Counted from the stretch's first letter, positions 2,406 to 60,096 are shown. The stretch: 64,000 nucleotides of DNA from an uncultured virus (IMG/VR IMGVR_UViG_2867919565_000004) (IMGVR_UViG_2867919565_000004:1-64000), one strand, 5' to 3'. Notes: generated from the sequence alone by a model not told the origin. Program-made: numbers and translations.

Positions 2406-2457
2406 GACCGCTTCCTCCTTTTATGCGTTTCATTAAAAGACCGATTTTATCTAATGT

Positions 2458-2622
2458 TCACTTCACTTTATTTGATTCAAAAGACAAGTGTATCCGTATC
2501 CAATAAAGCGCATCGTTTGCTTCATGAAAATCACCTTTAAAAAAATTCTTCGCCGCACTCTTTAATAAGAAAAAAATATGTCTCCAGTCGTCAGACTTAA
2601 AACTCATAATCCTCTTTATCAT
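2458..2622 (-). CDS. Hypothetical protein
   Basis: GGAGGG RBS then ATG (MIKRIMSF), ATGA-coupled to upstream ORF. Confidence 0.6.
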   Translation of the reverse strand: MIKRIMSFKSDDWRHIFFLLKSAAKNFFKGDFHEANDALYWIRIHLSFESNKVK

Positions 2623-2789
2623 TGAAATAACCCTCCCCAAATCACTCCTGCTGCAATGGCAACAATGAAAACTGAAATAAATTTAATTACACCAATATAG
2701 ACTGCAAATTTAATATTCCCTTGGGAATCCATGTTTGCTAATAACACAAGCCCAAATGCAACGAACAAAATCCAAGCCGTAACAATCAG
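2619..2789 (-). CDS. Small 2-TM membrane protein, CTG start
   Basis: (M)IVTAWILFVAFGLVLL...GVIWGGLFQ; AAGGGG RBS 8 nt before CTG. Confidence 0.55.
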   Translation of the reverse strand: MIVTAWILFVAFGLVLLANMDSQGNIKFAVYIGVIKFISVFIVAIAAGVIWGGLFQ

Positions 2790-2790
2790 A

Positions 2791-3216
2791 TCACTCGCCC
2801 CCTTTAATTAACTGGTTACAGATATTAATATATTCTTGAATACTATTAATAATCGTGATGATACAGCTCCTTACCTCTTCTGGTTCTTTAAAATCCATCT
2901 CACATTTAAGACAGTATTCATCGAACTCAATCATTGCAAGAAATTGATCATTACTTGGTGAATTTTCAAAATTAATTTTCTTTAATCTTGGGATGCCCTT
3001 TCCCCTAATCCATTCAATGAAGGAATAATCAACATGGTTTTTTGCTGCCGCGAATTTTAAAAACTCGTGAATATCAGAAGAGTTCTTAATATTGAAATAA
3101 ATGTGGAGACTCTTCTTCATGAGATCTAATAAGCGCAGTAGAGCTTCATCAATGTTATTGTCTGTTTTAGTCTTGAAGTCTATATCAAACCATTTTGCAG
3201 AGTTTTCATTGTTCAT
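2791..3216 (-). CDS. Hypothetical protein
   Basis: 141-aa ORF abutting neighbours. Confidence 0.65.
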   Translation of the reverse strand: MNNENSAKWFDIDFKTKTDNNIDEALLRLLDLMKKSLHIYFNIKNSSDIHEFLKFAAAKNHVDYSFIEWIRGKGIPRLKKINFENSPSNDQFLAMIEFDEYCLKCEMDFKEPEEVRSCIITIINSIQEYINICNQLIKGGE

Positions 3217-3651
3217 TTAATCCCTCCAAGAATCATGTTTTTCATTAACAGTTAGTCGATCCCTATTTCTCTTGGTGTTTTGTTCAGCTAAATTTAATAA
3301 TGCCTTTCTAGACTTTTCGTCATTAAAGACCTCTTCAAGATTTAATAGGTGTGTCCGTTGTTCCTTTGTCATTGCTTGAGTATGTAAGTCAGTAACTTTA
3401 TTGTTGTTTGCGGCTTTTCTAAATGCGTAGTATTTGGGCGGATTATAAGACTTAAACCATTTTTCAACTTTAATTGGTGACAATTGCCCAAAGCCAAACT
3501 TGATTAGTGCTGCCTTTTTGCTTTCCGGATGATTCATTATCTGTTCATATATAGTCAAGGGTTCGGTTAGTTCACTAGACACTTTGAAACCCTCAATTAG
3601 AGAACCGTTATTAAAATGAATATTTACCTTTGTGCCTGATCCATTATCCAT
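3217..3651 (-). CDS. Hypothetical protein
   Basis: 144-aa ORF, AAGGGGG RBS. Confidence 0.65.
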   Translation of the reverse strand: MDNGSGTKVNIHFNNGSLIEGFKVSSELTEPLTIYEQIMNHPESKKAALIKFGFGQLSPIKVEKWFKSYNPPKYYAFRKAANNNKVTDLHTQAMTKEQRTHLLNLEEVFNDEKSRKALLNLAEQNTKRNRDRLTVNEKHDSWRD

Positions 3652-3796
3652 GACTGGTTAACCCCCTTAAGCGTTCGACTTCAGCAACCAACCACTCTGC
3701 ATAACTAATGTGAATTTTCATCACCTTGGTCGATCCAGCTTGCCGAGACATTACTTCAACGAATTGCTTAATTTCTTCAAATTCAATTTCTTTCAT
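3644..3796 (-). CDS. Hypothetical protein, 50 aa
   Basis: MKEIEFEEIKQF...EWLVAEVERLRG; AAGGGA RBS. Confidence 0.55.
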   Translation of the reverse strand: MKEIEFEEIKQFVEVMSRQAGSTKVMKIHISYAEWLVAEVERLRGLTSHG

Positions 3797-3832
3797 TGAG
3801 GTTTATCCCTTCTAAATGAAATCAACATTTTA

Positions 3833-4033
3833 TCAATCCTCTTCGACTTCTCCATCTAATTCTTGTTTTAATTTGTAAGCAGATTCAGCAATCCCTTGAA
3901 ACTCCTTTTCAAGAAGATTTGCTCTCTTGGCTCTTTCAATAAGCCATTCATATGACACCCTATCTAATTCGACCATTGTTTCAGATGCGTAAAATGCCTT
4001 TTCTTCAATTTCTTCAATTGTCACGGCTATCAA
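3833..4033 (-). CDS. Hypothetical protein
   Basis: ORF bracketed by palindrome sites 3817 and 4045. Confidence 0.6.
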   Translation of the reverse strand: MIAVTIEEIEEKAFYASETMVELDRVSYEWLIERAKRANLLEKEFQGIAESAYKLKQELDGEVEED

Positions 4034-4060
4034 CCCTTCCTGTATAAAATTAGAATTTCA

Positions 4061-4429
4061 TTAATAAATTTTCCCTACATATTTACAATCCATTGATTGC
4101 TCAATGTAATATATAGCCTTATCAGTAAACATTATTTCAGTGCCAATACCGATTGAATGGAATATCCTTTTATTTTGAGTTGAGTTTAACCAAATTACGG
4201 ATTCATCTTTAAATTTTCCTTTTACCCATTTAGCTTCACTATTATATTTGTAACTAGGAAAATCTTTTTCAAATGTTAATTGATCAAACCTTTTATTTGG
4301 CATACCACTATACTCCAACCAATCATGAGTATGGCTAAATCCATTCTTACAAAATTCATTAATCTTAACGTTAATTTCTTCAATATTTGCCTCACTTAAC
4401 ACATAAGATTCCCAAGTATTTGCTATCAT
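4061..4429 (-). CDS. Hypothetical protein
   Basis: AAGGGGAG RBS, 122 aa. Confidence 0.65.
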   Translation of the reverse strand: MIANTWESYVLSEANIEEINVKINEFCKNGFSHTHDWLEYSGMPNKRFDQLTFEKDFPSYKYNSEAKWVKGKFKDESVIWLNSTQNKRIFHSIGIGTEIMFTDKAIYYIEQSMDCKYVGKIY

Positions 4430-4521
4430 CTTCGCTCCCCTTTCTTTCCCATGATTCAGTCCATGCTAATTCATCAGCCACGACCAATAGTCATTTAAAT
4501 CACCTCTATTCAAATTAATGT

Positions 4522-5132: not shown

Positions 5133-5174
5133 AGCTCACTGCTCCTTCCCATAAAATACAGATTTCATATTAAC

Positions 5175-10315: not shown

Positions 10316-10510
10316 GTTTTTCCTCCCTTAAAATTTGTATAAAAGTCTTCTTTTATAGATAACATCCCTGTTATCGACGCCTTTTGCAAAACCTTTTCAT
10401 TAAACAATTTCTTTGGATGGCATAATTGTTGAGCTTTTTGAGTATTTTAAGTTGTACCCTGGCTAAGACCCTCCACTGGACAAACATCATGATCTAAGCC
10501 AGGGCTTGTA

Positions 10511-14018: not shown

Positions 14019-17000
14019 ACTACACAGGACAAGCATCCCTCTTGGGTCGTATCCTTTGTTCTTGCATAATACAAGGTCTTAATTCCTTTATGATGAGCGT
14101 AGAGATCTATTCTATTCAGGTCTCTCGTCGTCATCGTATCCTTTAAGAACAGCGTAAATGAAATCCCTTGGTCAACGTGCTGCTGAATAGTTGCAATTAG
14201 ATCAACTACCTTAAACATATCCATGTCGTACGCTTCCTTATAAAAGAACCAATTCTGAGCCGATAAACCTGGCATAGGATAATATGTCTTACTGTTTCCG
14301 TATGTACGTTCCTCAATTCTCTCCATAATAGGCATTACACCGGCTGTAGATGATTGGACATATGAGATGCTTCCCGTAGGTGCAATTGCCTGTCTATAAG
14401 AGTGATACAAGCCATATTTCATAACATCTTCTTTAAGCTTCAACCAATCTTCAATGTTAGGAATATGTTGATCTCCAAACAGGCTTTTAACCTTTTCATA
14501 TTTAGGGCTATAATCATTTGTCACGTACTTATCAAAATACTCACCTGATTTGTAGGTCGACCCATCAAACTTGTAGTACGTCTCCCCTGTTTCTCTTGCA
14601 ATTTCCATTGAACGCTGCAGGGAGTAGAAATTAACCATCATAAAGTATGTATTTGCAAAATCCTTAGCTTCTTCACTTTCGTAAGCGATTTTATTTTGAG
14701 CCAGAAAACCATGCAGGTTCATCTGCCCCAGACCAATTGATCGCATTAGTGTATTTGCTCTCGCAACAGCTGGGGCATTAACAATGTTTGTTTTTCTTGT
14801 AACAGTTGTCAATGAGTCAATTGCAATTCTGACCGTTGAAGCAATTGATTGGTTACTCATTACGTTTACAATGTTCATTGAACCAAGATTGCAAGAGATA
14901 TCTAATCCAATTTTGTCCTCTTGATCGTAATCTGTATAAATTGATACTTGTGATGCTTGGAGCACCTCTGAGCAGTTGCCAGTAACAATCCCATTGAAAA
15001 TCAGGGAGTGATAGTCTTCCTGTGTTGTATCATAAACATCCTCAACACCATCTTCTACAATGCTAATAATTTCAGTTGTAAAATCATGCTTTGGCTTTCT
15101 TGACTTAGGTTGCAATGTCACAGTTAGCAAATTGAATTTATAAATATCGTATTCCTTCATTTCAACAACACTCATAAACAACTCTCTTGAGTTTCTATCT
15201 TGAATACTTAGTTTGTGTGTTGGCTTTACATTGTAGAGCTTAGAACCGCCTTTCCCATCAGGAAGGAGTTCTTGTGAACGCTTGTTGTTAGAATAGATCG
15301 TTGTATAAATACCCATGTTCAGTAATAGCTTCTGAACGTCCTGAAGGCTCTCATAGTGAATGGATGCTAACTCAATAGTTAATGCTTTGGCTTTATGATT
15401 TGCATTTACGCACCCATCAGTCTGAAATAAACCCGATAAATAAGCTGCTTGCGTTTCCTTATTAGCTTGAAAAATGAATTCTGGGACTCTTGTTTTTGTT
15501 CCTTTGTTCATACCGAACTTCTTCAAGATGTCAAATAAGACAGTGCTATTCATGTAGAGCAAATCCTGTTTATCTGGATTGGCCATATTAAATGTTGGAA
15601 CCAGTGATGTATTGTGTTTATATACACGATCGAGTTTGTGTTTTTGTATAACCCGATGTACGGCTTCAGTAACTTTCTGCTCAAGAACTTTTTTATTGTC
15701 ATATAAATAAATCTTGGCAGTTTTATCGGTAATGGTTCCATCACCAGCAATAATACCCATGATGTAAGCAAGATCTGGCTCATGAATGTCACCGTATGCT
15801 CCTTCAGCTGATTGGACTAATAGTTTATCGCCCGTTTTCAGTTGATTCAATTGGAGCTTTTGAATTTCACCATCTCTTTTCACATAGAATTTGTGCCACT
15901 CAGTTGCCCTTATTTCATATCCTTGCTTCGTTTTGACTTTAAATATTTCCGCATCTTTTTTAGTCAATTGCATTGGAATTGCATCTACTATTGAAGTACC
16001 TTTGCTGCCAACTGCAAAATCTTTTGTTCTATTATCAATGACCACTTTAAGCTCATTCTGCTTTTTGTAAAGATCGGCTGCTTTTTCATATCCATTCTCA
16101 GTTAAAAGAAGTGTTTCTCCAGTAACGCACAAATTAGAAAACTTCACTTTTGAAATATGTTCATTTGGATGCACTTTATTTACATTGTCAGCAAACATGA
16201 TATAAGGATAGCCAGATTCGCTTCTTAGAATGGCCAATTGCTCCAACAGCTTTCGAGCATTCCCTTTTGCTTTTCTAACCCTCGGGTTTTCAACAAGCTC
16301 ATCATACATTTTATTGATGTCCATCTCATCAAGATACTGCCCAAATTCTTTGTAAACTGAATGAGGATAGAACATGTAAAAGTCCTTATCTTCTCTTGCC
16401 AATTCAATGAATTTATCAGGAACAACTACACCAATGGATAGTGTTTTAACTCGGACATCTTCATCAGCACTTATTTTTTTGGTATCCAGGAAGTCTGTGA
16501 TGTCTGGATGGAATACACTTAGATAAACTGCTCCTGACCCTTGTCTTTGTCCCATCTGATCTGCATACCTAAAAGCATTATCAAGAAGTTTCATCACGCC
16601 TACGACACCTTTTGTTACATTTTCCACATCTTTAATGGCTTCGCCTTTGGCTCTTAATTTATTTAAGTTTAATGCTACACCACCGCCTAACTTAGACAGC
16701 TGCATGGAAATATCGATCGCCCGTGAAATGTCATTCAAACTGTCGCCTACTTCAAGTAAGAAGCAACTGACCATTTCACCCCTTCGCTTACGACCAGCAT
16801 TAATGAAAGCCGGTGTAGCTGGTTGATACTCTTGTTTCATCATAGTATGCACTTGCTCAACCGCTTTTTTATAATCTCCCCTTGCGAAAAATAAAGCTAC
16901 AATTGAGACACGATCCTCATATCTTTCTAGGATTTTTGTTTTGTCGTTTGTTTTCAATGCATAGTCATTGTAGAATTTAAAGGCACTCATGAAAGATGGA

Positions 17001-17269
17001 AATCTGAATTTGTAACTGTAAGCAATTTTATAAATTGATTTAATCTGTTCAAATGTGTATTTACTTAAGAATTCTTCTTCGTAATAATCGTTTTTAATCA
17101 GGTAATCCAGTTTTTCTTTTAAGTCATGGAAAAAGACTGTGTTTTGATTAATGTAATCAACAAAGTAACTGTGTACTGCCTCCTTATCCTTCTCAAATTG
17201 AAACTTACCGTCTTTCTGAATCATGATCTCATTATTGAGCTTGATCCACTTTGGTATTGTGTTTGTCAA
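14015..17269 (-). CDS. nrdE: Ribonucleotide reductase class Ib alpha subunit with intein
   Basis: PATP, SCFLL, SNLC-intein-CSE, APTGSIS, KTLYY, CLSCVV; TTG start after GGGAGG. Confidence 0.96.
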   Translation of the reverse strand: MTNTIPKWIKLNNEIMIQKDGKFQFEKDKEAVHSYFVDYINQNTVFFHDLKEKLDYLIKNDYYEEEFLSKYTFEQIKSIYKIAYSYKFRFPSFMSAFKFYNDYALKTNDKTKILERYEDRVSIVALFFARGDYKKAVEQVHTMMKQEYQPATPAFINAGRKRRGEMVSCFLLEVGDSLNDISRAIDISMQLSKLGGGVALNLNKLRAKGEAIKDVENVTKGVVGVMKLLDNAFRYADQMGQRQGSGAVYLSVFHPDITDFLDTKKISADEDVRVKTLSIGVVVPDKFIELAREDKDFYMFYPHSVYKEFGQYLDEMDINKMYDELVENPRVRKAKGNARKLLEQLAILRSESGYPYIMFADNVNKVHPNEHISKVKFSNLCVTGETLLLTENGYEKAADLYKKQNELKVVIDNRTKDFAVGSKGTSIVDAIPMQLTKKDAEIFKVKTKQGYEIRATEWHKFYVKRDGEIQKLQLNQLKTGDKLLVQSAEGAYGDIHEPDLAYIMGIIAGDGTITDKTAKIYLYDNKKVLEQKVTEAVHRVIQKHKLDRVYKHNTSLVPTFNMANPDKQDLLYMNSTVLFDILKKFGMNKGTKTRVPEFIFQANKETQAAYLSGLFQTDGCVNANHKAKALTIELASIHYESLQDVQKLLLNMGIYTTIYSNNKRSQELLPDGKGGSKLYNVKPTHKLSIQDRNSRELFMSVVEMKEYDIYKFNLLTVTLQPKSRKPKHDFTTEIISIVEDGVEDVYDTTQEDYHSLIFNGIVTGNCSEVLQASQVSIYTDYDQEDKIGLDISCNLGSMNIVNVMSNQSIASTVRIAIDSLTTVTRKTNIVNAPAVARANTLMRSIGLGQMNLHGFLAQNKIAYESEEAKDFANTYFMMVNFYSLQRSMEIARETGETYYKFDGSTYKSGEYFDKYVTNDYSPKYEKVKSLFGDQHIPNIEDWLKLKEDVMKYGLYHSYRQAIAPTGSISYVQSSTAGVMPIMERIEERTYGNSKTYYPMPGLSAQNWFFYKEAYDMDMFKVVDLIATIQQHVDQGISFTLFLKDTMTTRDLNRIDLYAHHKGIKTLYYARTKDTTQEGCLSCVV
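14975..16129 (-). mobile_element. 385-aa intein with LAGLIDADG endonuclease
   Basis: CVTGETLL...GIVTGN|C; MGIIAGDG and LSGLFQTDG motifs; inserted at the catalytic NLC site. Confidence 0.93.
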
Positions 17270-17627
17270 TAAGTTGTACCTCCCGATTAATCTTCTGTAA
17301 GTCTTGTTTTGATCCACTTAGTTCAAACTTTAATAACAATGGTACATGGAACATTGCTGAAAGCTTGTCCCCAGCTAAACCATAGTTATCACCCCAAACC
17401 TTGTTACCACTCACAGCAACTCCTTTTATTTTATTTTTATTATTAATAATAAAATTTAAAGTCCTTTCAGGTACTTCCCCAAAGCCTATCGTATATGTAA
17501 TATGTAAGAATTCTTCTTCAACAATTAAGTCATCTGTAATTTCAATGATGTCAAAGTTTGACTCCCTTTGTAATGCTTGAGCAAACCTTTTAACGTTACC
17601 TGTCTTGCTTTCATATGTAATAATCAA
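17232..17627 (-). CDS. nrdI: Flavodoxin NrdI
   Basis: YESKTGNVKRF, YTIGFGEVP, SGNKVWG, KFELSG. Confidence 0.93.
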   Translation of the reverse strand: MIITYESKTGNVKRFAQALQRESNFDIIEITDDLIVEEEFLHITYTIGFGEVPERTLNFIINNKNKIKGVAVSGNKVWGDNYGLAGDKLSAMFHVPLLLKFELSGSKQDLQKINREVQLIDKHNTKVDQAQ

Positions 17628-17974
17628 TATTCTTTATATTCCTCGTTAACTAAGCTATTCGTAGTTGTTTCTGCTTCATTTTCAGCATGATGGAATGCTT
17701 CAGACATTTCTAAATTGATCTCAGCCATCTCAGCATAGCCTTTGGCCATTTGAGCTTCATGGTCTGATAGCTCTGTCATCGGTACTGGAACGTAGTTATC
17801 CTTCTGCTCTTGCGTGATAACCATTTGATCCCCTTCTAAATTGGTCGCAATCAGTTCTCCTTTTAAAGCAGTGTATGAACCACCATTCTTCATATGTACT
17901 TGCGTATTTTCTTTTGCTTCATCCAAGGTTACAAAGTGACTGCGCTTCACGTATAATTGTCTAGCAGCTCCCAT
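17624..17974 (-). CDS. yosL: YosL-like protein with MazE(NdoAI)-like C-terminus
   Basis: MAKGYAEMAEINLEMSEAFHHAENEAETT; position upstream of nrdI. Confidence 0.8.
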   Translation of the reverse strand: MGAARQLYVKRSHFVTLDEAKENTQVHMKNGGSYTALKGELIATNLEGDQMVITQEQKDNYVPVPMTELSDHEAQMAKGYAEMAEINLEMSEAFHHAENEAETTTNSLVNEEYKEY

Positions 17975-17992
17975 TCCACAACTCCCTTTTCT

Positions 17993-18142
17993 CTATTTTT
18001 TGATTTTATCTTTTTCGTGTCTTAAGTCCAACTCATACATATCATTGAGAATATGGTCAATAACAACATCGCTAAATTTACCGAATGCCTTATAACCAAT
18101 TAATTTGCTTCTTAGATCTCTCCACTTTCTTGCTGCACTCAT
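17993..18142 (-). CDS. Hypothetical protein, 49 aa
   Basis: MSAARKWRDLRSKLIGY...; AAGGGG RBS. Confidence 0.55.
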   Translation of the reverse strand: MSAARKWRDLRSKLIGYKAFGKFSDVVIDHILNDMYELDLRHEKDKIKK

Positions 18143-18189
18143 TTTACTTCCCCTTCCTATGAAACTGTGATTTTATAAAGTTATTCCTG

Positions 18190-18462
18190 TTATAATAAAT
18201 GTCCATCCATTACAACAATATCTTCTTCTCTGCCTTTTAAATTGTTTGTAATCTCATCTTTAAAGAAGAATCCTTGTTCAAATCCAGTTCTATGAATGTA
18301 GGCTTTTACTGCATGGTCTAATGAAACTTCCTGCATTTCATTGCTAAGATTCTCTTCGTCATCTGTAGCAACTCCTTCAATGTAAAGTTTCATTGCATCT
18401 TCCTTTGTATTTGCCTTGATTAATGCGTAATATGGATCGCCCACCTCAAAGAATTTCATCAT
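18190..18462 (-). CDS. Hypothetical protein, paralog of 52171-52446
   Basis: MKFFEVGDPYYALIKA...MDGHLL. Confidence 0.7.
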   Translation of the reverse strand: MMKFFEVGDPYYALIKANTKEDAMKLYIEGVATDDEENLSNEMQEVSLDHAVKAYIHRTGFEQGFFFKDEITNNLKGREEDIVVMDGHLL

Positions 18463-18468
18463 ATTTCG

Positions 18469-18690
18469 TCAACTCCTAATGTATTTTTGTGTGAATCTCT
18501 TAATCTCTTTACCATCAACAACCACTTTTCCAAAGAACATTTCTTTAGGTCTTGCCCAAAGAACACCGTCTTGGTCTTCATATGTAACAAGTTTCTCTTC
18601 TGTCTCAGTATGAATGACCTCTCCAATAACCTTATATAGACCACCTTTATAATGTTTAAACCGACAACCGATAAAATCAAAAGTGTCTAT
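18469..18690 (-). CDS. DUF1653-family protein, ATA start
   Basis: Different frame from tracked ORF: RFKHYKGGLYKVIG..HTETEEKLVTY...WARPKEMF...KRF. Confidence 0.75.
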   Translation of the reverse strand: MDTFDFIGCRFKHYKGGLYKVIGEVIHTETEEKLVTYEDQDGVLWARPKEMFFGKVVVDGKEIKRFTQKYIRS

Positions 18691-18711
18691 TCTAATCCCC
18701 TCTTTCTATTT

Positions 18712-19080
18712 TTAAATCTTCTTATCAAGAATATCTTTGATGCCTTGCAGAGTTGTTTTATATTCGCTGTCCAGGTCATCTACATCTAATTTTGTTGAGA
18801 CTCGATAGTTTCCTGAGTTGTCGTACATTGTAATGAAAGCTTCCGTATCACCCTCTTTAGCACTAAAAGTGATATCGTAAAGATCAACCTGATCTGCTCC
18901 GTTTTCATTTTTTAACTCCTCAATAAAATCAGGCTGCATTATGTTGAATAATTCTTTAGCTGTTGTGAATTTTATTTGTTCTAGCAAGCTATCTTCTTTA
19001 TAATCAAATGTCTCGAAATAAAGGTTGAACGTGATATAGCCTTCTACAGAATTTCCATGTTTGGTGTATTCCATTTTCAT
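18712..19080 (-). CDS. Hypothetical acidic protein
   Basis: GGAGG RBS. Confidence 0.65.
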   Translation of the reverse strand: MKMEYTKHGNSVEGYITFNLYFETFDYKEDSLLEQIKFTTAKELFNIMQPDFIEELKNENGADQVDLYDITFSAKEGDTEAFITMYDNSGNYRVSTKLDVDDLDSEYKTTLQGIKDILDKKI

Positions 19081-19130
19081 TCCTCCAATTTATAGAGTAA
19101 TCTATTTCATTTTTGTTTAAAATCATCCTT

Positions 19131-19505
19131 TTATTCAGTTTTCAAAAGTCCAGGGTTTTCATAGATGTTTCCAATGATTTCAAGATCGCCTACCATGAAT
19201 GCGCCAGCGTCATCTCCGATACCTAAGTCAAGATAATAACTAGCATGCCTGTTGTCGTACTTAACGACGAACTTTGTATCTGTATTGTGTTCTAAAATAA
19301 TATCCCCCTCATAAATCTCTCTGTGGTATTTGTCCTTTAATCCGGTGTATTGCATTAAAGGTGATACATTTGAAAACTCGTTTCTGAAATAACAAGCTAA
19401 CTCCTCTTCGTCATTATTGAGAATTTCATCCCAGTCAATCATTCGCGGGAATTCTTGACCGTCTCTTTCCTCTGTATGATAAGCTCGAAATTTGATTTCC
19501 CTCAT
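19131..19505 (-). CDS. YopX-family protein
   Basis: MREIKFRA, LMQYTGLKDK, EIYEGDI, EIIGNIYENP. Confidence 0.85.
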   Translation of the reverse strand: MREIKFRAYHTEERDGQEFPRMIDWDEILNNDEEELACYFRNEFSNVSPLMQYTGLKDKYHREIYEGDIILEHNTDTKFVVKYDNRHASYYLDLGIGDDAGAFMVGDLEIIGNIYENPGLLKTE

Positions 19506-19549
19506 TCTCCTTACCTCCTTATTGTTTTTGTATAAAATAAAACTTTCAT

Positions 19550-19972
19550 TTATATCTCACCTGCTACACAGAATTTCCAAAACCTCTTCCACCAGGAAGT
19601 TTTACGTTTTTCTTCTTCCTCTTTAAAGCGTTCATAGTTTTCTTTAACTTGCTGATTCCATTTCTGTATTTTTTCTTGTGTTTGAATCGCTTTTTCAAGG
19701 CTCTCTTTATCTTCAATTGTTTTAATTACCTTGTCAGTCTGATATGTCCATTCATTTTTTGTGTTGCGCTGCCTGTCTGTTACGACTACGTATTCGTTAA
19801 GCCCTGGGATATACACTTTCCCTTCGATTTCAATTGGGTCTAAGTCGATGATCCCTTCAAAAAATGACTGGTATTCACATTGCTGCTCAATTGGGACAAG
19901 GGCATCACACAGGCCTAATGTCCAACTTTTCTTAATTACCTTCCCTTCAAATGTTGCTTTATGGCGTACCAC
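19550..19972 (-). CDS. Hypothetical protein
   Basis: AAGGAGG RBS, GTG start. Confidence 0.65.
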   Translation of the reverse strand: MVRHKATFEGKVIKKSWTLGLCDALVPIEQQCEYQSFFEGIIDLDPIEIEGKVYIPGLNEYVVVTDRQRNTKNEWTYQTDKVIKTIEDKESLEKAIQTQEKIQKWNQQVKENYERFKEEEEKRKTSWWKRFWKFCVAGEI

Positions 19973-42634: not shown

Positions 42635-43514
42635 TCAAAATAACCCCTCTTCCTTTGCAGCATTCACATTCGACTAAGGGCTCGTTGATTTTAGTCATCA
42701 GATCATCTAAAAATTTCTTAATATTACTCTTTAAATCTTCAACGTCCTTACCACTAAAAGGCTCTACAATTGGATAGCTCTGATAGGCTTTGGGTGCAAC
42801 ATTGTAAATTTCAACCTCCCGCTTGGTTTGAAATCTTTTCTCAAGTTTAGGCTTTCTACGTTTGTACATTGCATTTAGATCAACTACGTACTCTTGAGGT
42901 TTGTAAAGCTCCAAAACTTTGACCACAGTTAAACAGAAATCATAATCACTCGTTATTCTTGCAAACTTAGGGTTTATATTGGCTTTTATATGGTTTCTGA
43001 TAATCTTATAGCTTTCTTCTCGGGACAAGTAACACGGCTTTGTTTCAAGAAGCATTGGATGAGTTTGAATTCTATCCAGTAAGTTATAATTCAAGTTAAA
43101 ATTATGGCTTTGCAACTTAAGTTCTCCGTCAATTTCTTCAATTACATTCATTTCAAACTCAATTTTTTGATTCTGTTGCGGGACTTCTTCAAATTTTAAA
43201 TCATATAGACCCTTCACTTCATAGTATTCACTGTCTTCACCTATGTAAGAAGTTTTAATTACTTGTGGCGTCAAATCAGTTTCCTGGAACCCCTCTTTTA
43301 ATTCATACCTATGATTGATTTTTTTAGCAGGCATTTGCTTTTCAATAACACTTGGCTCCTTATCAAGCTTAAACCAGTCTGATTTATACGTTTCAGTTGC
43401 TCGTTTCCCATCGAAAAACAATTCATCTAATTGACTATGAAAATATTTCTTTCCTTCAATATTGTCAGACACCAAAAAACAGTTACTTGTTTTAATACCA
43501 ATTAGCTTCATCAA
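42624..43514 (-). CDS. Phage protein with C-terminal CxxCxGxG
   Basis: ARITSDYDFC; CECCKGRG. Confidence 0.7.
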   Translation of the reverse strand: MMKLIGIKTSNCFLVSDNIEGKKYFHSQLDELFFDGKRATETYKSDWFKLDKEPSVIEKQMPAKKINHRYELKEGFQETDLTPQVIKTSYIGEDSEYYEVKGLYDLKFEEVPQQNQKIEFEMNVIEEIDGELKLQSHNFNLNYNLLDRIQTHPMLLETKPCYLSREESYKIIRNHIKANINPKFARITSDYDFCLTVVKVLELYKPQEYVVDLNAMYKRRKPKLEKRFQTKREVEIYNVAPKAYQSYPIVEPFSGKDVEDLKSNIKKFLDDLMTKINEPLVECECCKGRGVILNEN

Positions 43515-43588
43515 ATTTCCCCTTTTTAATTTTATTTTTAACCTTATAAAATCTCTGTTTCACCTTCATTAAAGCTATCTGTCTTCAA

Positions 43589-46447: not shown

Positions 46448-46563
46448 CTAATCGTCTTCCTCCCATGAATCTAATTAAAATCACGATTTTAATTTAACTT
46501 TAATGTGTATCATCTTGAGAAAATCCCCTCTAATTGGTAAACTCATACCTAACTTAAATACGA

Positions 46564-47333: not shown

Positions 47334-47364
47334 GTGCCTTCCTCCTTACAATGAAATAATCCTT

Positions 47365-47556
47365 TTATTGTGATTTATTTTCCAACGCTTTTAATTCTTC
47401 TTCATACAAAGGTAGAATAGCCTTTTCGGCTTCGCCCCTAGACACACCATGCTGCTCCATATATGTAACAATATCCATTCCAATGTTATTTCCTAGCTCG
47501 GTTTCCCAAACTATGTGATCAGCCATAGCAAGATTTCCATCCATTAAGTAGTTCAT
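47365..47556 (-). CDS. Hypothetical protein
   Basis: MNYLMDG after GAAAGGGG; bracketed by palindrome sites 47352 and 47569. Confidence 0.55.
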   Translation of the reverse strand: MNYLMDGNLAMADHIVWETELGNNIGMDIVTYMEQHGVSRGEAEKAILPLYEEELKALENKSQ

Positions 47557-47581
47557 CCCCTTTCTATATAAAACAGTCTTT

Positions 47582-47830
47582 TTATTTAGATTTAATTTCA
47601 ACAATTAGACTGTCTGGATAGTTCTTCAAATCAAGTGCGTTCACATGGCAGTGTCCTACATGGCCTTCTTTATCAATATAAGTATAGAAAAACTTTTCCC
47701 CATTATTGATGATAACTTCACCATGGTGTGTATACTCCATCTCTGACCCCTTATACCAAATCACTTTAACTCCAGTTCCTGGTTTGATTTTATCCAGGTC
47801 AAATACGGTTACTTCTTTTAGCAAGTTCAT
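47582..47830 (-). CDS. Hypothetical protein
   Basis: GGAGG RBS. Confidence 0.65.
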   Translation of the reverse strand: MNLLKEVTVFDLDKIKPGTGVKVIWYKGSEMEYTHHGEVIINNGEKFFYTYIDKEGHVGHCHVNALDLKNYPDSLIVEIKSK

Positions 47831-48173: not shown

Positions 48174-48219
48174 AAATCTCTTCCTTTCTATTCCAATGAA
48201 ATTTTACTTTTAATCTAAT

Positions 48220-50418
48220 TCATCTTGTTTCCTGGGCAGCAGTTTCTTTTTCAAAATCGTTTCTCAATTTGATAATGGATGTTGATTTTAAATACCCTCT
48301 GTCCTTTGTCTTAGCCCATGCAAAGAATCTATTGTGCAAAGGAGTGTAAAGGCTTCCTGTGTTAACCATATGCTCATGTTTGTTGCTGATCTTATGCTTT
48401 AATCCCCTCATTTGTTTCCAAAAGTTATAGTAAGGGAGCTTAAGTTTTGTCATGAAGCCGGTAGCATCTTCAATTACATAACCCTCTTCCTCAATTGAAA
48501 AATCTTGTGACACGTCCAGATACCATCTATAGAAATCTGTCCAGTTAGCAAACTCTACAACTTGTTTTTTACACTCAATGTTTAGATGCTCGGCTACAGC
48601 TTTCAATTCCCAATAAGGAAGTTTTGTATACGCAACCTGCCTTTTAACAATATCTAAAAGCACCAGTTTATCTGTGTCGTATTCAATAATATGCGGGTCT
48701 TTTTCTGGAAGTATTACTTCAAAAACGAATGAAACATTGTTAAGCTTCAGGTAAGTTTTGATAAAAGACACTTGATTTTCATTAAAAGATTTGAAAAACA
48801 AATCTTCAACCCATTTGGCATGTTCGTTTGATAATTGAGACGTAAAGGATTTAGAAGTGAATACCAACTGATCTGACAAAGAGTCATACCCTACAGTTCC
48901 TAAATATCCATTTGCCTTATCGAAGACTGTTACTGGAAACTTCATCTTATCTACGAGATGATGCATTCTTGTTTCAGATCGTTCTCCAATGTTGAAAAAT
49001 TTATCATAGCTTCTGCTTACAATTTCATTGCTCTCAGTGTTAATAAACAAACCTCTTGCCTTAATATTTGTTTCATCCCACTTTTTCTTTCTAAATGCTT
49101 GCTTTGTAAAATTAAATGATGAGATATTGTTTGGCATCTTGTTCTCTTGGACATATTCATGATTACGTAAGTGAGAAACCAAATCATCAATTGTTCCAAC
49201 AGTTACACTGTTACTCTGCACATCACTTGAAATTTCTTTAAAGACTTTATTCTTCACTTCATGCGTTTCAATTCCGTTCTCAGACAGTGTAACGACCCTA
49301 AGGTGACCTCCTCTTTCCACTTGCCCTTCCAGGTTATATGATCTTTCTGCTGCTAACACAGGCAGACGGTACATGTTTCTATGTCCATGAATTTGTACAA
49401 CATTTTGACCCGCAGTATTATTTGCAAATTCATAATCAATATCGTCTGAATAATCTCCAACTCCATTGATGAATTGTGTTGTTGCAGTCATTAAAAGATT
49501 TTCAGGTACGGTTGAAACTCCTCCATGGGTTACAATGTATGTAGTGTTTTTATATGTAAAGTAAACTAACTGATGAAACTTCCTGGCCAACTGCCTAATG
49601 TCTTTTTTATCAATGTTGGATTGTTCGATTTCTGGCTTAGTTTTGTTGTTAAATGTGTTGCTAGGTGTTTCTTCATCATTCCCATACATATTGATATACC
49701 TATCGTGATTTCCTTCCAGAATAATCACATTTTTATTATCTTTAATTTTGATCATGAATTCTAACAGCTGTGCATTTTCAATACCTCTGTCAATAAGATC
49801 TCCTACAAAGATGTATAGTTCAGTTTCATTTAAATCACCGTTTAGGTACTCTTGAAGCACAGTATTGCACCCATGAACATCTCCGAAAATATGTATCTTT
49901 TTATAATCGTTAAAGCATCTCGGCTTATAGGTCATCGTGTTTTCAAACTCATCCGGCTTTAGAACGGTTACCCAAGATGGCACTTTTTCTGTTGTCATTC
50001 TTTCATAAATATTTCGAATACTGCTTTCAGGAACATGCTTATGTTCAGCCCTCATTTTATTTCTTTTTAAGATTCTCCGAACATCAACATCAGAAAAATC
50101 AACTACATATACACGGTATCTATATTTTTGAGCTAGTGGCTTATATCTTGAAATCATACTTTGCTTTGAATGAGTTGCATCGACAATTGTGAATTCACCG
50201 CGATCCATCCTGTCTTCAAGCAATTTCATTAATAAATCCCACACCTTGTTGTCGTGTTTTGGAGAGATTTCATATTTTCCACCTTTGTTTAACACAGGTG
50301 ACTGAAACAGTAGCCTGATATTGTCTGCAGAAAGTGTGTATTGCTCAAGCCCATTTTCTTTAATCCAAGTTGATTTCCCCACTCCGGGGCAGCCTCTTAA
50401 TAACACTAATGTTCTCAA
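48220..50418 (-). CDS. Trifunctional polynucleotide kinase / metallophosphoesterase / RNA ligase
   Basis: GCPGVGKST; GDVHG, GDLIDRG, GNHD, HGH; KFFN, KANG, FE, EGYVI, KLK. Confidence 0.88.
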   Translation of the reverse strand: MRTLVLLRGCPGVGKSTWIKENGLEQYTLSADNIRLLFQSPVLNKGGKYEISPKHDNKVWDLLMKLLEDRMDRGEFTIVDATHSKQSMISRYKPLAQKYRYRVYVVDFSDVDVRRILKRNKMRAEHKHVPESSIRNIYERMTTEKVPSWVTVLKPDEFENTMTYKPRCFNDYKKIHIFGDVHGCNTVLQEYLNGDLNETELYIFVGDLIDRGIENAQLLEFMIKIKDNKNVIILEGNHDRYINMYGNDEETPSNTFNNKTKPEIEQSNIDKKDIRQLARKFHQLVYFTYKNTTYIVTHGGVSTVPENLLMTATTQFINGVGDYSDDIDYEFANNTAGQNVVQIHGHRNMYRLPVLAAERSYNLEGQVERGGHLRVVTLSENGIETHEVKNKVFKEISSDVQSNSVTVGTIDDLVSHLRNHEYVQENKMPNNISSFNFTKQAFRKKKWDETNIKARGLFINTESNEIVSRSYDKFFNIGERSETRMHHLVDKMKFPVTVFDKANGYLGTVGYDSLSDQLVFTSKSFTSQLSNEHAKWVEDLFFKSFNENQVSFIKTYLKLNNVSFVFEVILPEKDPHIIEYDTDKLVLLDIVKRQVAYTKLPYWELKAVAEHLNIECKKQVVEFANWTDFYRWYLDVSQDFSIEEEGYVIEDATGFMTKLKLPYYNFWKQMRGLKHKISNKHEHMVNTGSLYTPLHNRFFAWAKTKDRGYLKSTSIIKLRNDFEKETAAQETR

Positions 50419-50466
50419 ATTCTATCAACCTTTCTGATTTTTATTTTTTTAAAATGCATCTTTTAA

Positions 50467-52446: not shown

Positions 52447-52478
52447 TGTTCTTCCCCCTTTACCTTTCTTGATAAAAC

Positions 52479-52703
52479 TTAAATTTTATTTTTATCCTTA
52501 AAATATTCATGCTGATTTACAACATCTCGAAGTATGTATTGTATTTCCTCTAAATTGTCTTTAACAAAGTCCAGGTCTCCTATTGCCATTCTGATTTCAT
52601 TGTTCTCTATGCTGCGCAAAGATCTTTCACATGATGCTAAAAGCTTTGCATATTTCCTTAAAACCATAGTTCTTATTTGATTATTAGTTGGTTCATTCAT
52701 CAA
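52479..52703 (-). CDS. Hypothetical protein
   Basis: AAAGGAG RBS. Confidence 0.6.
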   Translation of the reverse strand: MMNEPTNNQIRTMVLRKYAKLLASCERSLRSIENNEIRMAIGDLDFVKDNLEEIQYILRDVVNQHEYFKDKNKI

Positions 52704-53131: not shown

Positions 53132-53431
53132 TTATTTTAAAGATAACAGTTGAGAAGATTTATAGCTTTCATTTTCAAACGAATCGTCTATTTCTTCGGC
53201 ATAAGAGGTTGTTATTTCAGCATCCTCTGTACACATGATGTCTACATCAAATAGTGCCTCATATTTTTCTTGATTTTTTTGAAGAAACCCCATTTTTCCT
53301 GTTTTATTTTCTAATTTCTTTTTAATTGATTGATATGCGAACAAAAGTGCTTCCTCTTCATTCTTGGCTTTTATTCTGCCGAAAAAAGGAATGCACAGCT
53401 CCCCTTGAATAAAATAATCCTTTTCTGACAT
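53132..53431 (-). CDS. Hypothetical protein
   Basis: GAGGG RBS. Confidence 0.6.
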   Translation of the reverse strand: MSEKDYFIQGELCIPFFGRIKAKNEEEALLFAYQSIKKKLENKTGKMGFLQKNQEKYEALFDVDIMCTEDAEITTSYAEEIDDSFENESYKSSQLLSLK

Positions 53432-54037: not shown

Positions 54038-55021
54038 TTAAGAATTAGTCTCAATTACTTCAGACTTGATACAATATTTTTCTAAGTTCTCCATGTTCAC
54101 TACTTTCCTCAGTGATTGTGAATTAAACTCCGCGTCTTCATTCAGGAACCCGTATTGTCGAGTTATTTTTTTATAATCAGGTACTTTTAATTCGCCCTTC
54201 TCTTTATATATCTCATACGCCATGTTTAGCTTTCCTGAGTTGATAAGATTCTTAGGTGAAAAGAAGGGTTCTTCTAAAAATTTTTGAAACTGACTAAAAG
54301 AACGGTGAACTAAAAATTTGTCAGCTTTCATACTCTGATTAGAACTCTTATATTTTAGCCTGAAAATATTTTCGCTTTTAACTAATGAAGCAAATTTGTT
54401 TTTAAGTCCACTCTCTGGCGAACCATTGCTAAGATGATATGTTGTTTGGTCATTAGCACGCTTAAGCAGCTCATAACATTTATCGCTTACAGTAATTATT
54501 CTTACACCATGTTTATCATCTACCAGCTTTACCTTGTTATCATCAAGTAAATCGTCACCTGTTAAATTCAGTAACTCTGAATGCTGATAACCATCTATGC
54601 CTTCATAAATAGCCTGTATCATGGCCTTATCCTGATAATTAACCATAAAATCAACATACTCTTCTACTTCTTTATTGGTGAATAGTGTTTTTTTGTTTTT
54701 GTCTATAAACTGCTTTAAGTCACCATCCTGTATCTGATACACTTTGTTAATATTACTGTTTGCCAAGCCATTTTCCATTGCCCAGGTTGTGTATTGTCCA
54801 ATTACAGCTCTTGCTCCTCTTAGTGAATCTATAGATTTGCTGTCCAGATCTAAAAATAACGTACGCAGCTCTTCCAAAGAAAAATTAAATATGTCTTTTT
54901 TAAGTATGTTTTCTGTAGCTGAAAAATCTTTTAGCCTCAGACGATAAAGGTTTCTTGTTACTTCACTTTCGTATTTCTCTAAAAACTTTTCCTTTAATTC
55001 AGCATTATACATTTCACTCAT
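54038..55021 (-). CDS. yopR: Master repressor MrpR/SroF (degenerate tyrosine-recombinase fold)
   Basis: [11 protein letters not shown]..., [15 protein letters not shown]; position. Confidence 0.85.
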
Positions 55022-56467: not shown

Positions 56468-57526
56468 TCACTTGTTCAAAAACATTTTAAGTTTACTCTG
56501 TATATACATGTCTGATTTTAAAAAGAATTCTTTATATTGCTCTAAGGTAACATCATCTAAAAAGGACATGTCTTCTTTTTGATCAACCAAAACCCCTGGA
56601 TCTTGAGAATAATCCCTTTCATTGTTTAAATAATGATCATTCAAAACATTGATATTGCTGTGACCAGAGAACGCTGCAACTTTTTTAATATCACCATTAA
56701 CGCTGTAAGAAAAGTTTGTTGCAGTATTGCGTAAACTATGCGGAGTTATCTTTCTTTCTTTTGGAATGCCCATAACTCTACATACGCGATTCCACATATC
56801 CTGTATTGAATCAACTGTTAACTTATGAAATAACAGTTCATGCTCCCCATACTCTTGCTTTAACAGCAACAACTCTTCATAAAAAGCTGTGGAAATTCCA
56901 ACTGGCCTAGCCTTTTTTTGCTTGGTTTTTTTAAAGTTGACGAGATAGCATTGATGCTTTTCTGAATAAGTAATATCATCCCACCCAACTCTAAGCACCT
57001 CTGATTTACGCCCTCCAGTGCGTGCACTAAACAAAATAAACATCTTTTTCATTAATCTGTTCTGCCGCTCAGTAACATACGCTGCCTCAGCAAATTCATC
57101 AGCTTCAGATATTCCTTCAAAAGAGCCTGCTGGGTTCTTTTCTGTTGGAAGAGGCCTAAAATTAAATACAGATGCATCACACTCATGTTCAGATTCAAGA
57201 TACTTAATCATACTTTTCAGTGCGGCAATCTTGTTGTTAATTGTTGAATTGGAGTTACTTTTATTTTTAGCCAAATGGCTTCGATAATCATACAGGTCAC
57301 TCTTCTTGATCGCCAGGTCACTCTCAGTTAAATATTCAATATCCTTGGCAGCATAGTGGTTGAAAAACTCTCTTATATGCCTTTCATACGTGGCTCTAGT
57401 ATTAGACTTTTCAATTTCTCCAGTTTTTTGATCCCTGTTTCTTAAATCTAATTCATCAAACCACCTATTTATGTTGTTGAATATTGAATAATCCCTTAGT
57501 GTTGACGCTTTCTTTTGAGCTTCCAT
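56468..57526 (-). CDS. yopP: Tyrosine recombinase YopP/SroD
   Basis: TGGRKSE, KTK, HSLR, SGH, HY: full catalytic set. Confidence 0.85.
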   Translation of the reverse strand: MEAQKKASTLRDYSIFNNINRWFDELDLRNRDQKTGEIEKSNTRATYERHIREFFNHYAAKDIEYLTESDLAIKKSDLYDYRSHLAKNKSNSNSTINNKIAALKSMIKYLESEHECDASVFNFRPLPTEKNPAGSFEGISEADEFAEAAYVTERQNRLMKKMFILFSARTGGRKSEVLRVGWDDITYSEKHQCYLVNFKKTKQKKARPVGISTAFYEELLLLKQEYGEHELLFHKLTVDSIQDMWNRVCRVMGIPKERKITPHSLRNTATNFSYSVNGDIKKVAAFSGHSNINVLNDHYLNNERDYSQDPGVLVDQKEDMSFLDDVTLEQYKEFFLKSDMYIQSKLKMFLNK

Positions 57527-57537
57527 AATGACACACC

Positions 57538-57702
57538 TCATATCATTTTTTTCATTAAGTATTGATCAAATTCTTTCCACGCAACAATCCATTCATTTTC
57601 ACCTTGAATATTACTCAGCAGCATTATATTGGCGTTACAGATTTCCATTTGCTTTAACATGTCGTATTCTTTAAGAGCGTTAATTAAGATGTCTGTATTC
57701 AT
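57538..57702 (-). CDS. Small sro-operon protein, 54 aa
   Basis: MNTDILINALKEYDMLKQ...; AGGTG RBS. Confidence 0.6.
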   Translation of the reverse strand: MNTDILINALKEYDMLKQMEICNANIMLLSNIQGENEWIVAWKEFDQYLMKKMI

Positions 57703-58263: not shown

Positions 58264-58347
58264 TGATTTATTTTATTTTTATTCAAGACAAAAAACACAT
58301 CCCCTACGTATGTGTTAAAATGTCTGCTAATTTGTTTTTAATCCTCA

Positions 58348-58503
58348 TTAGGATACCTTTGCTTTAGATTTTGATCTAACCATTTCTGCTTCATTTTCAA
58401 GATGATTGTCTTCCTGGGAAATTATAAGATTAATAGATGCCATTTCTTCGTAACCTTTGGCCATATCCTCATAAGAAAGTGCTTGTCCGAAATGCTTTTT
58501 CAT
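58348..58503 (-). CDS. aimX: AimX, MazE-mimic, 51 aa
   Basis: MKKHFGQALSYEDMAKGYEEMASINLIISQEDNHLENEAEM...; downstream of aimP and AimR box. Confidence 0.85.
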   Translation of the reverse strand: MKKHFGQALSYEDMAKGYEEMASINLIISQEDNHLENEAEMVRSKSKAKVS

Positions 58504-58515
58504 TTTAATTCCCCC

Positions 58516-58552
58516 ATGTTCTTGTTTTTTATATTATGAATTTCTGGAACAT
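58516..58552. promoter_or_regulatory. AimR operator
   Basis: ATGTTC-25nt-GAACAT, the 6-25-6 architecture of AimR sites. Confidence 0.85.
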
Positions 58553-58569
58553 TCTCTTAAAATTAGAAA

Positions 58570-58598
58570 AGACGCCTGATCCACTGGATCAAACGTCT
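58570..58598 (-). terminator. Hairpin between aimP and aimX
   Basis: agacg-cc-tgatcca-c-tggatca-aa-cgtct followed by T-run on minus strand. Confidence 0.7.
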
Positions 58599-58624
58599 AG
58601 CCAAGTTATGTATTATCTTTGAAG

Positions 58625-58765
58625 TTAAGCCCCACGGCTTGGTGATGCAACTTTTACAGGCTGATCTACATGGTCTACTGATGCTGTCTCAATTGATTGC
58701 TGTCCGGCAACAAATCCAACAGCCATTGCTAACAAGATTACAACTCCAAGAACAATATTTTTCAT
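58625..58765 (-). CDS. aimP: Arbitrium pro-peptide, mature SPSRGA
   Basis: MKNIVLGVVILLAMAVGFVAGQQSIETASVDHVDQPVKVA-SPSRGA. Confidence 0.93.
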   Translation of the reverse strand: MKNIVLGVVILLAMAVGFVAGQQSIETASVDHVDQPVKVASPSRGA

Positions 58766-58786
58766 TTAATTCACCTCCCTTCAATT

Positions 58787-59935
58787 TTAGACCATGATTA
58801 ATTCAAGTAGTTTTTCGTCACAGCCCATTTTCCTTAGCTCCGCTAATGGAAGATTGATAAATAATTTATCACCAGATTTTTTCAACTTTGCAGTGCTTTC
58901 ATAAAAATAATTCTTATTTTGATATAGAATCCCCTTAACGTAATCTAGAATCCCAGAATCATATTCATACAATTCCATATTTTCAAGCTCATTTATTACC
59001 TTCTCTGCTTTATTAAATTCCTTATTATTAGTATAGTAATATGCTACCTCAATCTTATCAGGGATATTATCAGTGTCGAAATCAAGCCATTTATTATCCT
59101 TATTCCAAACGTTGCTTAAAAAGCAAAGAGCCAATCGCAGCTTATATTTATGATGTTCATTATCACGCGCAAATTCCAACCCTTTAAGATACTGCTCTTT
59201 TGCTTTAGAATAGCTTTCAAAAATTAATGTATTACCATATGTTAAATGCCCAAATACTTTTAGGCGATTTATATTTGAATTTTGAATAACTTGTTCTGAA
59301 TGATACCTGGATTTTTCAATTTCATTATCATTTAAATGAATATTTGCATTTAATAATGAAATCCTATTCATATAGCAATCTTTCACAAAGCCCTCGGGTA
59401 AATCGTTGAAATTGAGAATTGATAATGTGCTTTTCATCAATCCAAACTCGCCTACCTTCAAATACTCATACATCAGCATAGCATTTGAGAAAAACAACAT
59501 TTCATCTGTTTTACACTTTCCGGTTGCTCTTATTGCATCAGTTAAACTTATCTTATTTTCGCTCAATCTTCTATGTATACTGTATGTATTGCCCCATTCT
59601 TGACTTGCTAGGTTTTTTGAGCTAGATAGCCTTGAAACTATCTTGTCTGTTAACGTATCCCATTGATTAATATCTGAGTATTCAACAGATTGTCTGGCGC
59701 ATTTTTTGTTGGGATCCAATGATAAGAAATAATCACTTAAAAGTTGCTCTTCATTATCAGGAAACAAGCTTTTAACAATATTAATTAAACCGCCTAAGTT
59801 GTCCATTTCTTTCTCTGGGGTGTTAATGAATTTGTAAAAGCCATTAACTTTTTCGTACCCTGCTATTTTTGAGAGTTTCGCTGCGAGTTGGTTGTCTTTT
59901 TCACATTCATTCTTAATCATCTGCTTAAGATTCAT
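58787..59935 (-). CDS. aimR: Arbitrium receptor
   Basis: N-terminal HTH, TPR region, adjacent aimP. Confidence 0.93.
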   Translation of the reverse strand: MNLKQMIKNECEKDNQLAAKLSKIAGYEKVNGFYKFINTPEKEMDNLGGLINIVKSLFPDNEEQLLSDYFLSLDPNKKCARQSVEYSDINQWDTLTDKIVSRLSSSKNLASQEWGNTYSIHRRLSENKISLTDAIRATGKCKTDEMLFFSNAMLMYEYLKVGEFGLMKSTLSILNFNDLPEGFVKDCYMNRISLLNANIHLNDNEIEKSRYHSEQVIQNSNINRLKVFGHLTYGNTLIFESYSKAKEQYLKGLEFARDNEHHKYKLRLALCFLSNVWNKDNKWLDFDTDNIPDKIEVAYYYTNNKEFNKAEKVINELENMELYEYDSGILDYVKGILYQNKNYFYESTAKLKKSGDKLFINLPLAELRKMGCDEKLLELIMV

Positions 59936-60096
59936 TGGTTACTCCACCCCTTCCCAACTTATGTTCCCTTGTTTATAATATACATTAGAGTTGTCAGAAT
60001 TACAAGTATTTATTTTATTTTTATTCTAATTATTTTTTGAAGGATCCTTATCTGATTAAAATTCGTATTTTATATAAACCGGCACAATAAGAATCC

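Follow-up and report, generated by a model that had tools for sequence, protein, structure and literature searches.

The genome of the uncultured virus IMGVR_UViG_2867919565_000004, a 128,068-bp provirus related to SPbeta, is punctuated by copies of a palindrome, WTRAAA-N6-TTTYAW, whose six-base spacers are written here as addresses, read in gene direction. The window analysed is the 64-kb first half of this provirus, and coordinates are those of the window unless stated otherwise. Sequence comparison gives good support to the view that the palindromic sites are addressed exchange joints, and we hold it with high confidence. With lower, though still favourable, confidence we propose that the palindromes serve SPbeta-like phages as the crossover points of a cassette exchange that is coded by address and spans the whole genome, and a phage tyrosine recombinase is rated just as probable as the driver of exchange at the sites. 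In its broadest form, which we put forward a shade more cautiously, SPbeta-like and related large Bacillales phages would practise a natural, genome-wide recombinase-mediated cassette exchange (RMCE), in which about 35 unique addresses permit slot-for-slot trade of anti-defence, methyltransferase and other modules and a shared address book defines the gene pool.

Motif abundance and site architecture

The window holds 23 exact copies of WTRAAA-N6-TTTYAW, against a mean of 1.36 in shuffled sequence (largest count 5; none of 100 shuffles reaches 23), and each spacer length from 0 to 15 other than 6 yields 0–5 copies. The whole 128-kb genome contains 34 exact copies, 32 of which lie outside open reading frame (ORF) interiors, as delimited by a custom ORF caller; these interiors make up 84% of the genome. 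Shuffles confined to intergenic sequence give a mean of 0.48 copies and at most 3 in 300 trials, and control arrangements of the arms, everted or direct, occur 2, 5 and 8 times, the everted one accounting for 2 copies in the genome. These counts agree with an earlier sequence-only reading of the window, which had placed the copies between genes, had estimated a chance expectation of 2–3 per 64 kb and had proposed shuffles, a coding/intergenic split and other spacer lengths as a check: the motif is enriched, intergenic and specific to a 6-bp spacer.

That reading had listed 24 copies. All 24 of its spacers are present, each left arm lying one base before the coordinate it gave, and 22 of the copies are exact; those at 42348 and 43546 carry one mismatch each, and an exact copy at 27165 had been overlooked. 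Its three near-matches prove to have one mismatch (63460) or two (13719 and 45937). The further statement that no spacer is repeated holds for exact sites, among which this genome shows no repeats, and fails for a one-mismatch near-site at 53409–53426 that has the spacer of the site at 47351. This near-site is kept in six relatives, inflates the GGATTA row of the allele analysis described below and is probably non-functional as a site. The association with accessory genes, with none in the core, stands in so far as the replication block of the window (27341–38586) contains no copy of the motif. Five copies, however, lie in the late/structural half outside the window (genome positions 90053, 96473, 102284, 107393 and 124099), so the motif is not restricted to accessory genes.

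A logo of 636 unique contexts extends the arms to TCTAAATAAAA-N6-TTTTATTTAGA, with an outer T-C/T-T-R-A beyond WTRAAA, giving an 11-6-11 layout. This layout, together with joints at module boundaries, is consistent with the tyrosine-recombinase-like geometry of inverted arms around a short spacer that had been recognized at the outset. The two arms show no covariation: positions 2 and 15 are paired in 287 of 342 cases, against 281.5 expected, with 30 A-C mismatches, which points to independent half-sites on double-stranded DNA and not to a hairpin. A hairpin or RNA structure of the attC kind was ruled out on this ground. Identity with a host dif/XerCD site was ruled out on arm sequence, the arms being symmetric and sharing 6 of 11 and 5 of 11 bases with Bacillus subtilis dif (sequence from the available text of PMC3025954).

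Spacers as addresses across related phages

The comparison set comprises 26 genomes or segments: this genome, SPbeta, Goe11, phi3T, SPR and Goe13, all whole, and 20 IMG/VR records used as 91–100 kb parts and picked from 44 loci for length and spread. Each of the 26 has 10–38 sites with a six-base spacer, against 0–8 for spacers of 3–5 and 7–9 bases, and in none of them is the spacer of an exact site repeated, where about 7 repeats would be expected in total. The order of addresses is concordant in 35,674 of 35,784 pairs across genomes, even between phages that are about 72% identical. Of 100 gene families that come after a site in at least two genomes, 82 are tied to a single address, 8 to near variants of an address and 10 to distant addresses. 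Allele clustering of the flanks, performed on 785 exact sites and 118 one-mismatch intergenic sites of known address, shows that the spacer stays with its flank for 140 of the 173 upstream alleles and for 134 of the 166 downstream ones, which suggests that the dominant event is exchange between identical spacers on two genomes. Judged from these comparisons, the spacers are conserved, collinear addresses, not random footprints.

SPbeta addresses reach G036, which carries the SPbeta set in order, and G023, while the more distant G040, G042, G043 and G044 keep the arms with address sets of their own. Of 16 additional virus records, 15 have more copies of the motif than of a reversed-pattern control, as have Geobacillus E3 (36 against 2) and Alicyclobacillus KKP_3916 (12 against 0); it is weak in LC76P1 (4 against 0) and Sundance (4 against 1). 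In a 3.4-Mb Terribacillus genome, 17 of the 31 copies fall within one 119-kb prophage stretch, indicating that the motif follows phages and not a host regulon.

Crossovers at the sites

Alignments between relatives end disproportionately at the sites: the surrounding sequence, 1.3% of the total, takes in 2,678 of the 17,677 alignment ends (15%), with left edges collecting the starts and right edges the ends. Since modules break at gene ends in any case, gap-matched junctions that lack a site were used as the control. Homology breaks in 2,069 of 2,522 comparisons at junctions with a site (82%) and in 1,938 of 4,728 at junctions without one (41%); of the unique junctions, 92 of 99 with a site and 59 of 112 without have both partners occurring beside another gene as well. 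The four-gamete test is passed by 13 of the 57 addresses seen at least four times, including TTCTAA (4044–4061), GTTTTA (19532–19549), TTCAAT (20639–20656) and TATCTC (25243–25260) in the window.

Site pairs chosen by flank alone allow the crossover to be placed. For the 623 pairs that share only the upstream flank, spacer identity is 0.96 as compared with 0.80 for the flank itself, and for the 536 pairs that share only the downstream flank the values are 0.93 and 0.71. The degenerate base of the far arm drops toward the baseline of unrelated sites (0.65 against 0.50 at W17; 0.76 against 0.71 at W0). Spacer identity above that of the flanks, combined with this drop, places the crossover inside AAA-N6-TTT and argues that the spacer is under selection, the invariant bases of the core blocking mapping to the spacer itself. 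The sequence-only reading had proposed to check whether breakpoints among relatives fall inside the 6-bp spacer; breaks are concentrated at the sites, with a resolution that reaches the AAA-N6-TTT core and not the spacer alone.

Whole cassettes recur between the same address pairs, including in this phage and G011, which are about 81% identical. Two DNA methyltransferase genes of the window, both on the minus strand, fill adjacent slots (23599–25172): the first occupies the GATCAA-TTTGTC slot (23599–24384), with the same boundary alleles in G005 and G011, and the second the TATCTC-GATCAA slot (24420–25172), with the same boundary alleles in G011. The GATCAA site between them (24406–24423) was identified by motif scan and allele comparison. 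A contig of the public run X14 matches the window up to 23602, then has 1,609 letters of different sequence and matches again from 25243. The replaced segment (23603–25242) is bounded by exact site edges at both ends, namely those of TTTGTC (23585–23602) and TATCTC. A contig of this run also ceases to match at precisely 18176, where the TCACAG site (18159–18176) ends. Among the joints in contigs of relatives (15 of 25 examined), two end exactly at site edges and one lies one base inside a site.

Alleles with a distant spacer are infrequent (9 of 173 upstream and 9 of 166 downstream), and several of them are deletions between neighbouring addresses in which either spacer is kept. For example, upstream allele 147 stands with GATCAA in Goe11 and G002, and TATCTC stands with downstream allele 107 in G001 and G016. 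The AGACTG site of the window (47568–47585), whose upstream allele precedes TTGAAG in five genomes, is probably such a collapsed TTGAAG-AGACTG slot.

The Gad slot

A variable slot is delimited by CAGAGA (43546–43563) at its upstream end and ACGATA (42348–42365) at its downstream end, each with one mismatch. Its cargo in the window is gad1, encoding Gabija anti-defence 1 (42624–43514, minus strand), along with a 90-residue ORF; the product of gad1 is 95% identical to phi3T_128 and matches PDB entry 8u7i with an E value of 2.5e-190. In SPbetaL7 this slot is filled by Gad2 and elsewhere by other genes, and it is empty in SPbeta; in G024 it holds a Gad2-like gene, matched by ends and length only. 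The available text of 10.1101/2023.05.01.538930 describes the Gad region as a dedicated anti-Gabija locus and reports a spontaneous, Cas13a-selected gad2 deletion in SPbetaL7 (109,505–110,753), for which that text describes no repair template. The Gad-slot sites of SPbetaL7 start at 109,510 and 110,762, and the deletion ends 5 and 9 bp before them. As a site-to-site event this deletion is suggestive, not proof.

Candidate recombinases and proposed mechanism

The genome encodes two intact tyrosine recombinases, a YopP-like protein and one at the yomM position. The YopP-like candidate (56468–57541, minus strand) contains the catalytic R, HxxR, H and Y, and the corresponding residues (R, HxxR/K, H, Y) are present in all 12 aligned rows of the family. 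YopP is found in 25 of the 26 compared genomes and in 15 of the 16 further records, and is 22–36% identical between groups. At the tail locus, all 20 genomes that have the GAGGGA address carry a tyrosine recombinase gene no more than 416 bp from that site; 14 are intact and of the YomM type, 2 are split and 4, including that of this genome, belong to an unrelated family. The enzyme encoded here (genome positions 106321–107340, outside the window) has 339 residues, and its gene lies 53 bp before the site at 107393. With SPbeta YomM it has hardly any relationship, yet its identity is 69–99% with the best 120 of 831 homologues; it is a replacement of non-orthologous origin and polymorphic in a single phage clade. 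The YomM of Geobacillus E3, with its 36 sites, is 80% identical to that of G001.

Presence and absence do not separate YopP from the tail-locus enzyme, motif-rich and motif-poor phages carrying both. An integron integrase model scores YopP at 27.8 bits, against a cut-off of 265, and gives no hit to the tail-locus enzyme. The YopR/SroF-like repressor of the window, which has a recombinase fold (54038–55021, minus strand; assigned by gene order and an identity of 31% with the SPbeta locus), had been named by the sequence-only reading as a possible binder. Published ChAP-seq makes it an unlikely reader of the sites: in the available text of PMC10516654, MrpR (YopR) binds the 15-bp SPBRE, a motif derived from nine ChAP-seq peaks at promoters, without recombinase activity, and YopR is described as a catalytically dead SPBRE binder there and in the available part of 10.1101/2025.11.27.690993.

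In the proposed mechanism, a tyrosine recombinase (tail-locus YomM, its non-orthologous substitute, or YopP) would bind the arms as a homotetramer and exchange strands across the 6-bp spacer. Spacer identity would limit two co-resident genomes, a prophage and a superinfecting phage, to equivalent positions; one crossover would produce a hybrid and two would produce a cassette swap. Unique addresses would guard each genome against self-deletion, and rare excision between neighbouring sites would collapse unlike addresses with one spacer kept.

Counter-evidence and alternative explanations

Several observations weigh against a recombinase-driven, address-coded exchange. The compared genomes are mutually related, so the pair counts and the repeat test are not independent. 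No enzyme is tied to the site, and YopP and the yomM-locus recombinase are candidates in which the catalytic residues are present. Between phages of the phi3T and SPbeta types YopP identity is only about 31%, the YomM and f237 families of the tail locus are barely related (phmmer E value of about 3e-4) in phages that share addresses, and LC76P1 and Sundance possess a tail-locus recombinase and a YopP-like sequence yet only four exact sites each. The gad2 deletion of SPbetaL7, at 1,249 bp, differs from the 1,252 bp that a clean event from site to site would remove. No excised circle was seen, the read data covered being assembled contigs of relatives, none of which contains half of the window's words. 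In four phi3T-SPbeta laboratory hybrids (Hyb1-3, PP526179), none of the parent switches mapped to less than 90 bp falls at a site, the wide intervals, too coarse to place a switch, containing sites, and in the available account of such hybrids 15 of 16 junctions lie in homologous DNA (10.1101/2020.05.06.055103). The latter figures suggest that ordinary recombination dominates where homology is long, site exchange being rarer or of importance only between unlike modules. The single junction termed nonhomologous in that account, after yosA, may be the TATTCC site (21409–21426), which is the sole collinear sequence common to SPbeta and phi3T around yosA; this is a lead only. In the phi3T record KY030782, phi3Ts and all four hybrids differ from the record at about 100300–104000, with the TATCTC site closing the interval of the right boundary.

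The rival that draws most on these data treats the sites as addressed linkers for homology-driven recombination, by YorG annealing or by RecA, with the palindrome kept for another DNA-binding protein. An 18–28-bp site would then be the only identity of two unrelated modules, and rare annealing there would lead to viable swaps. The phage does encode YorG (36209–37180, minus strand), a Sak4-like single-strand annealing protein that is 97% identical to its SPbeta counterpart and could use the sites as microhomology, a further point against site-specific exchange, and the laboratory hybrids crossed in ordinary homology of 30–90 bp. Imprecise microhomology would also fit both the 3-bp discrepancy of the gad2 deletion and the yoqX-yoqZ region of G021, in which two 99%-identical gad2-like copies are stacked upstream of gad1 and joined by truncated CAGAGA/TAGAGA sites; this stack, formed through a truncated left arm, looks like microhomology slippage and likewise speaks against a recombinase. 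However, linkers would need a second reason for the strict two-fold symmetry and fixed 6-bp spacer found across Bacillales phages with unrelated address sets. Moreover, identity on the unshared side falls at arm positions 15–17 and 0, leaving a shared tract of about 14–16 bp, which is short for annealing. We regard linkers of this kind as an unlikely explanation, to be kept in view.

Inverted repeats with a fixed spacer and independent half-sites are equally the geometry of an operator or roadblock for a dimeric regulator, the alternative mentioned by the sequence-only reading, and breakpoints would then be a by-product of gene boundaries; some junctions, for example TACTCC and GTGTTA, are indeed invariant. 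The spacer of an operator should nevertheless drift, whereas here it is better conserved than the flanks and the degenerate arm bases, and junctions with a site break twice as often as matched site-free ones. None of the nine sites in 17000–27500 overlaps any of the 32 promoter-like and 9 terminator-like hits in the 10.5 kb scanned, and MrpR, the known repressor, has another element of 15 bp as its target. An operator therefore fits poorly, and we consider it highly improbable. Scarcely more credible as the main mode is a process like that of integrons or Tn916, in which single-gene circles would enter and leave across unlike spacers. The collapsed slots keeping either spacer, the absence of the Gad cassette from SPbeta and the necessity that new addresses originate somehow would lend themselves to it. 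Against it stand the 82 of 100 gene families that follow one address, with 10 following distant ones, the collinear order, the absence of attC-like covariation and the scarcity of everted arms (only 2 in the genome), the Tn1549 target being everted. Of the integron/pdif-like shuffling first proposed for these phages, recombination joints at module boundaries are thus retained, and Tn916-style insertion between unlike spacers is set aside as the main mode, given the many flank alleles that keep their spacer. Exchange between like addresses on two genomes remains the preferred reading.

Other sites and genes of the window

The TCGGTC address (2433–2450) is present in 18 of the 25 other genomes, with 11 upstream and 10 downstream alleles. 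Further sites identified by motif scan are TGTTGA (3816–3833), GAAGAC (10339–10356), GGATGA (19117–19134), TTGTAG (39490–39507), TCGTGA (46475–46492), GATGCA (50449–50466) and TACGAA (60056–60073), as well as the near-site at 63460–63477 with one mismatch. TCTGTA (5151–5168) and GGATTA (47351–47368) are documented by motif scan and allele analysis, and TCAATT (42154–42171), a variant of GTAATT, by motif scan and allele comparison. The spacer TTTAAG of the site at 52472–52489 is a one-letter variant of the address TGTAAG. The exact match at 27165–27182 lies inside a yorM-like ORF; the spacer in relatives is GAATCA, GAGTCA or AAGTCA, with two upstream and two downstream alleles, and it is possibly an intragenic joint.

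The GTAAAA site (48196–48213) follows an RNA ligase/phosphatase cassette. This GATGCA-GTAAAA slot is occupied by a 732-residue phosphatase/kinase/RNA-ligase protein (48220–50418; PHROG 8238), a candidate RNA-repair counter-defence protein. An A-rich, strand-biased element, AAAATAAAATW, is found in many intergenic spacers of the window, often adjoining sites, with 30 forward and 4 reverse copies in gene orientation, and possibly represents extra half-sites or a translation enhancer.

Significance and comparison with known systems

Whether phage mosaicism arises through dedicated joints or only through chance recombination followed by selection is a long-standing question, tied to the linker idea of modular phage evolution. 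The joints described here are visible and countable in the model phages SPbeta and phi3T, which makes the question testable in B. subtilis 168. Address-coded exchange predicts further counter-defence genes in other highly variable slots, the most variable being TCGTAC, TGTTGA, GTAAAA and CAACAA. If it is true, the enzyme would come with dozens of orthogonal 6-bp addresses and so offer a ready tool for multiplex cassette exchange, and the shared address book would set which phages form one gene pool.

The boundary or linker sequences of lambdoid phages and the PeSL cassettes of T4 are short, near-identical repeats at module boundaries, often promoters, that are used by homology. The present sites resemble them as boundary elements that promote modular shuffling, but here only the arms repeat and each centre is unique. 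In engineered RMCE with heterospecific lox or FRT sites, unlike spacers block self-recombination and like spacers on a second molecule permit a swap. The spacer logic is the same here, whereas the system is natural, has dozens of addresses and has a candidate enzyme in place of an assigned one.

The literature searched, which lacked the 1999 SPbeta genome paper and most others behind subscription, shows no description of the element, and an earlier mention is possible. The available text of an SPbeta comparative preprint (10.1101/2021.11.22.469490) contains neither 'motif' nor 'yomM', and PMC13586616 does not mention SPbeta. The SPBRE of MrpR, as far as its published account was available, is likewise a repeated intergenic element of the same phages; it differs from the sites in being a 15-bp motif at promoters, of another size, number and location.

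Tn916 and Tn1549 share with the sites AT-rich 11-bp inverted repeats and a crossover of 5–7 nucleotides, and either spacer survives an event between unlike spacers (PMC5871717, available text). According to the same source, the Tn1549 target consensus is the everted TTTT-n6-AAAA. Spacer homology is ignored in Tn916-type events, whereas a spacer identity rule operates here, and the sites are not transposon ends. Integrons resemble the present arrangement in having promoterless units of ribosome-binding site and ORF between recombination sites and in their anti-defence or defence cargo. In contrast with integrons, the arms here lack hairpin covariation and no intI-attI platform heads the array; each cassette stays in a fixed slot instead of queueing at attI, and the sites span the whole genome.

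The closest likeness is to the pdif/dif modules of Acinetobacter. These are bounded by XerC/XerD sites of 11-6-11 layout that need identical or nearly identical 6-bp spacers, and a single module is replaced in two steps, a cointegrate forming at one pair of spacers and being resolved at the following pair (PMC13141974, available text). As far as that account goes, both features, 11-6-11 sites bounding modules and exchange at identical or near-identical spacers, are found here. The differences are that the arms here are symmetric and not of XerC/XerD type, in which the two arms are distinct and the XerD arm begins TTATGT, without C/D alternation; that about 35 sites are spread over a 130-kb phage genome, with spacers unique per genome and collinear across the population; and that a phage enzyme, not the host XerC/D pair CodV/RipX, is suspected. 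On its sequence features, then, the system appears to work like dif modules while falling outside their membership, with symmetric non-Xer arms and no C/D alternation, and it is neither an integron nor of Tn916 type.

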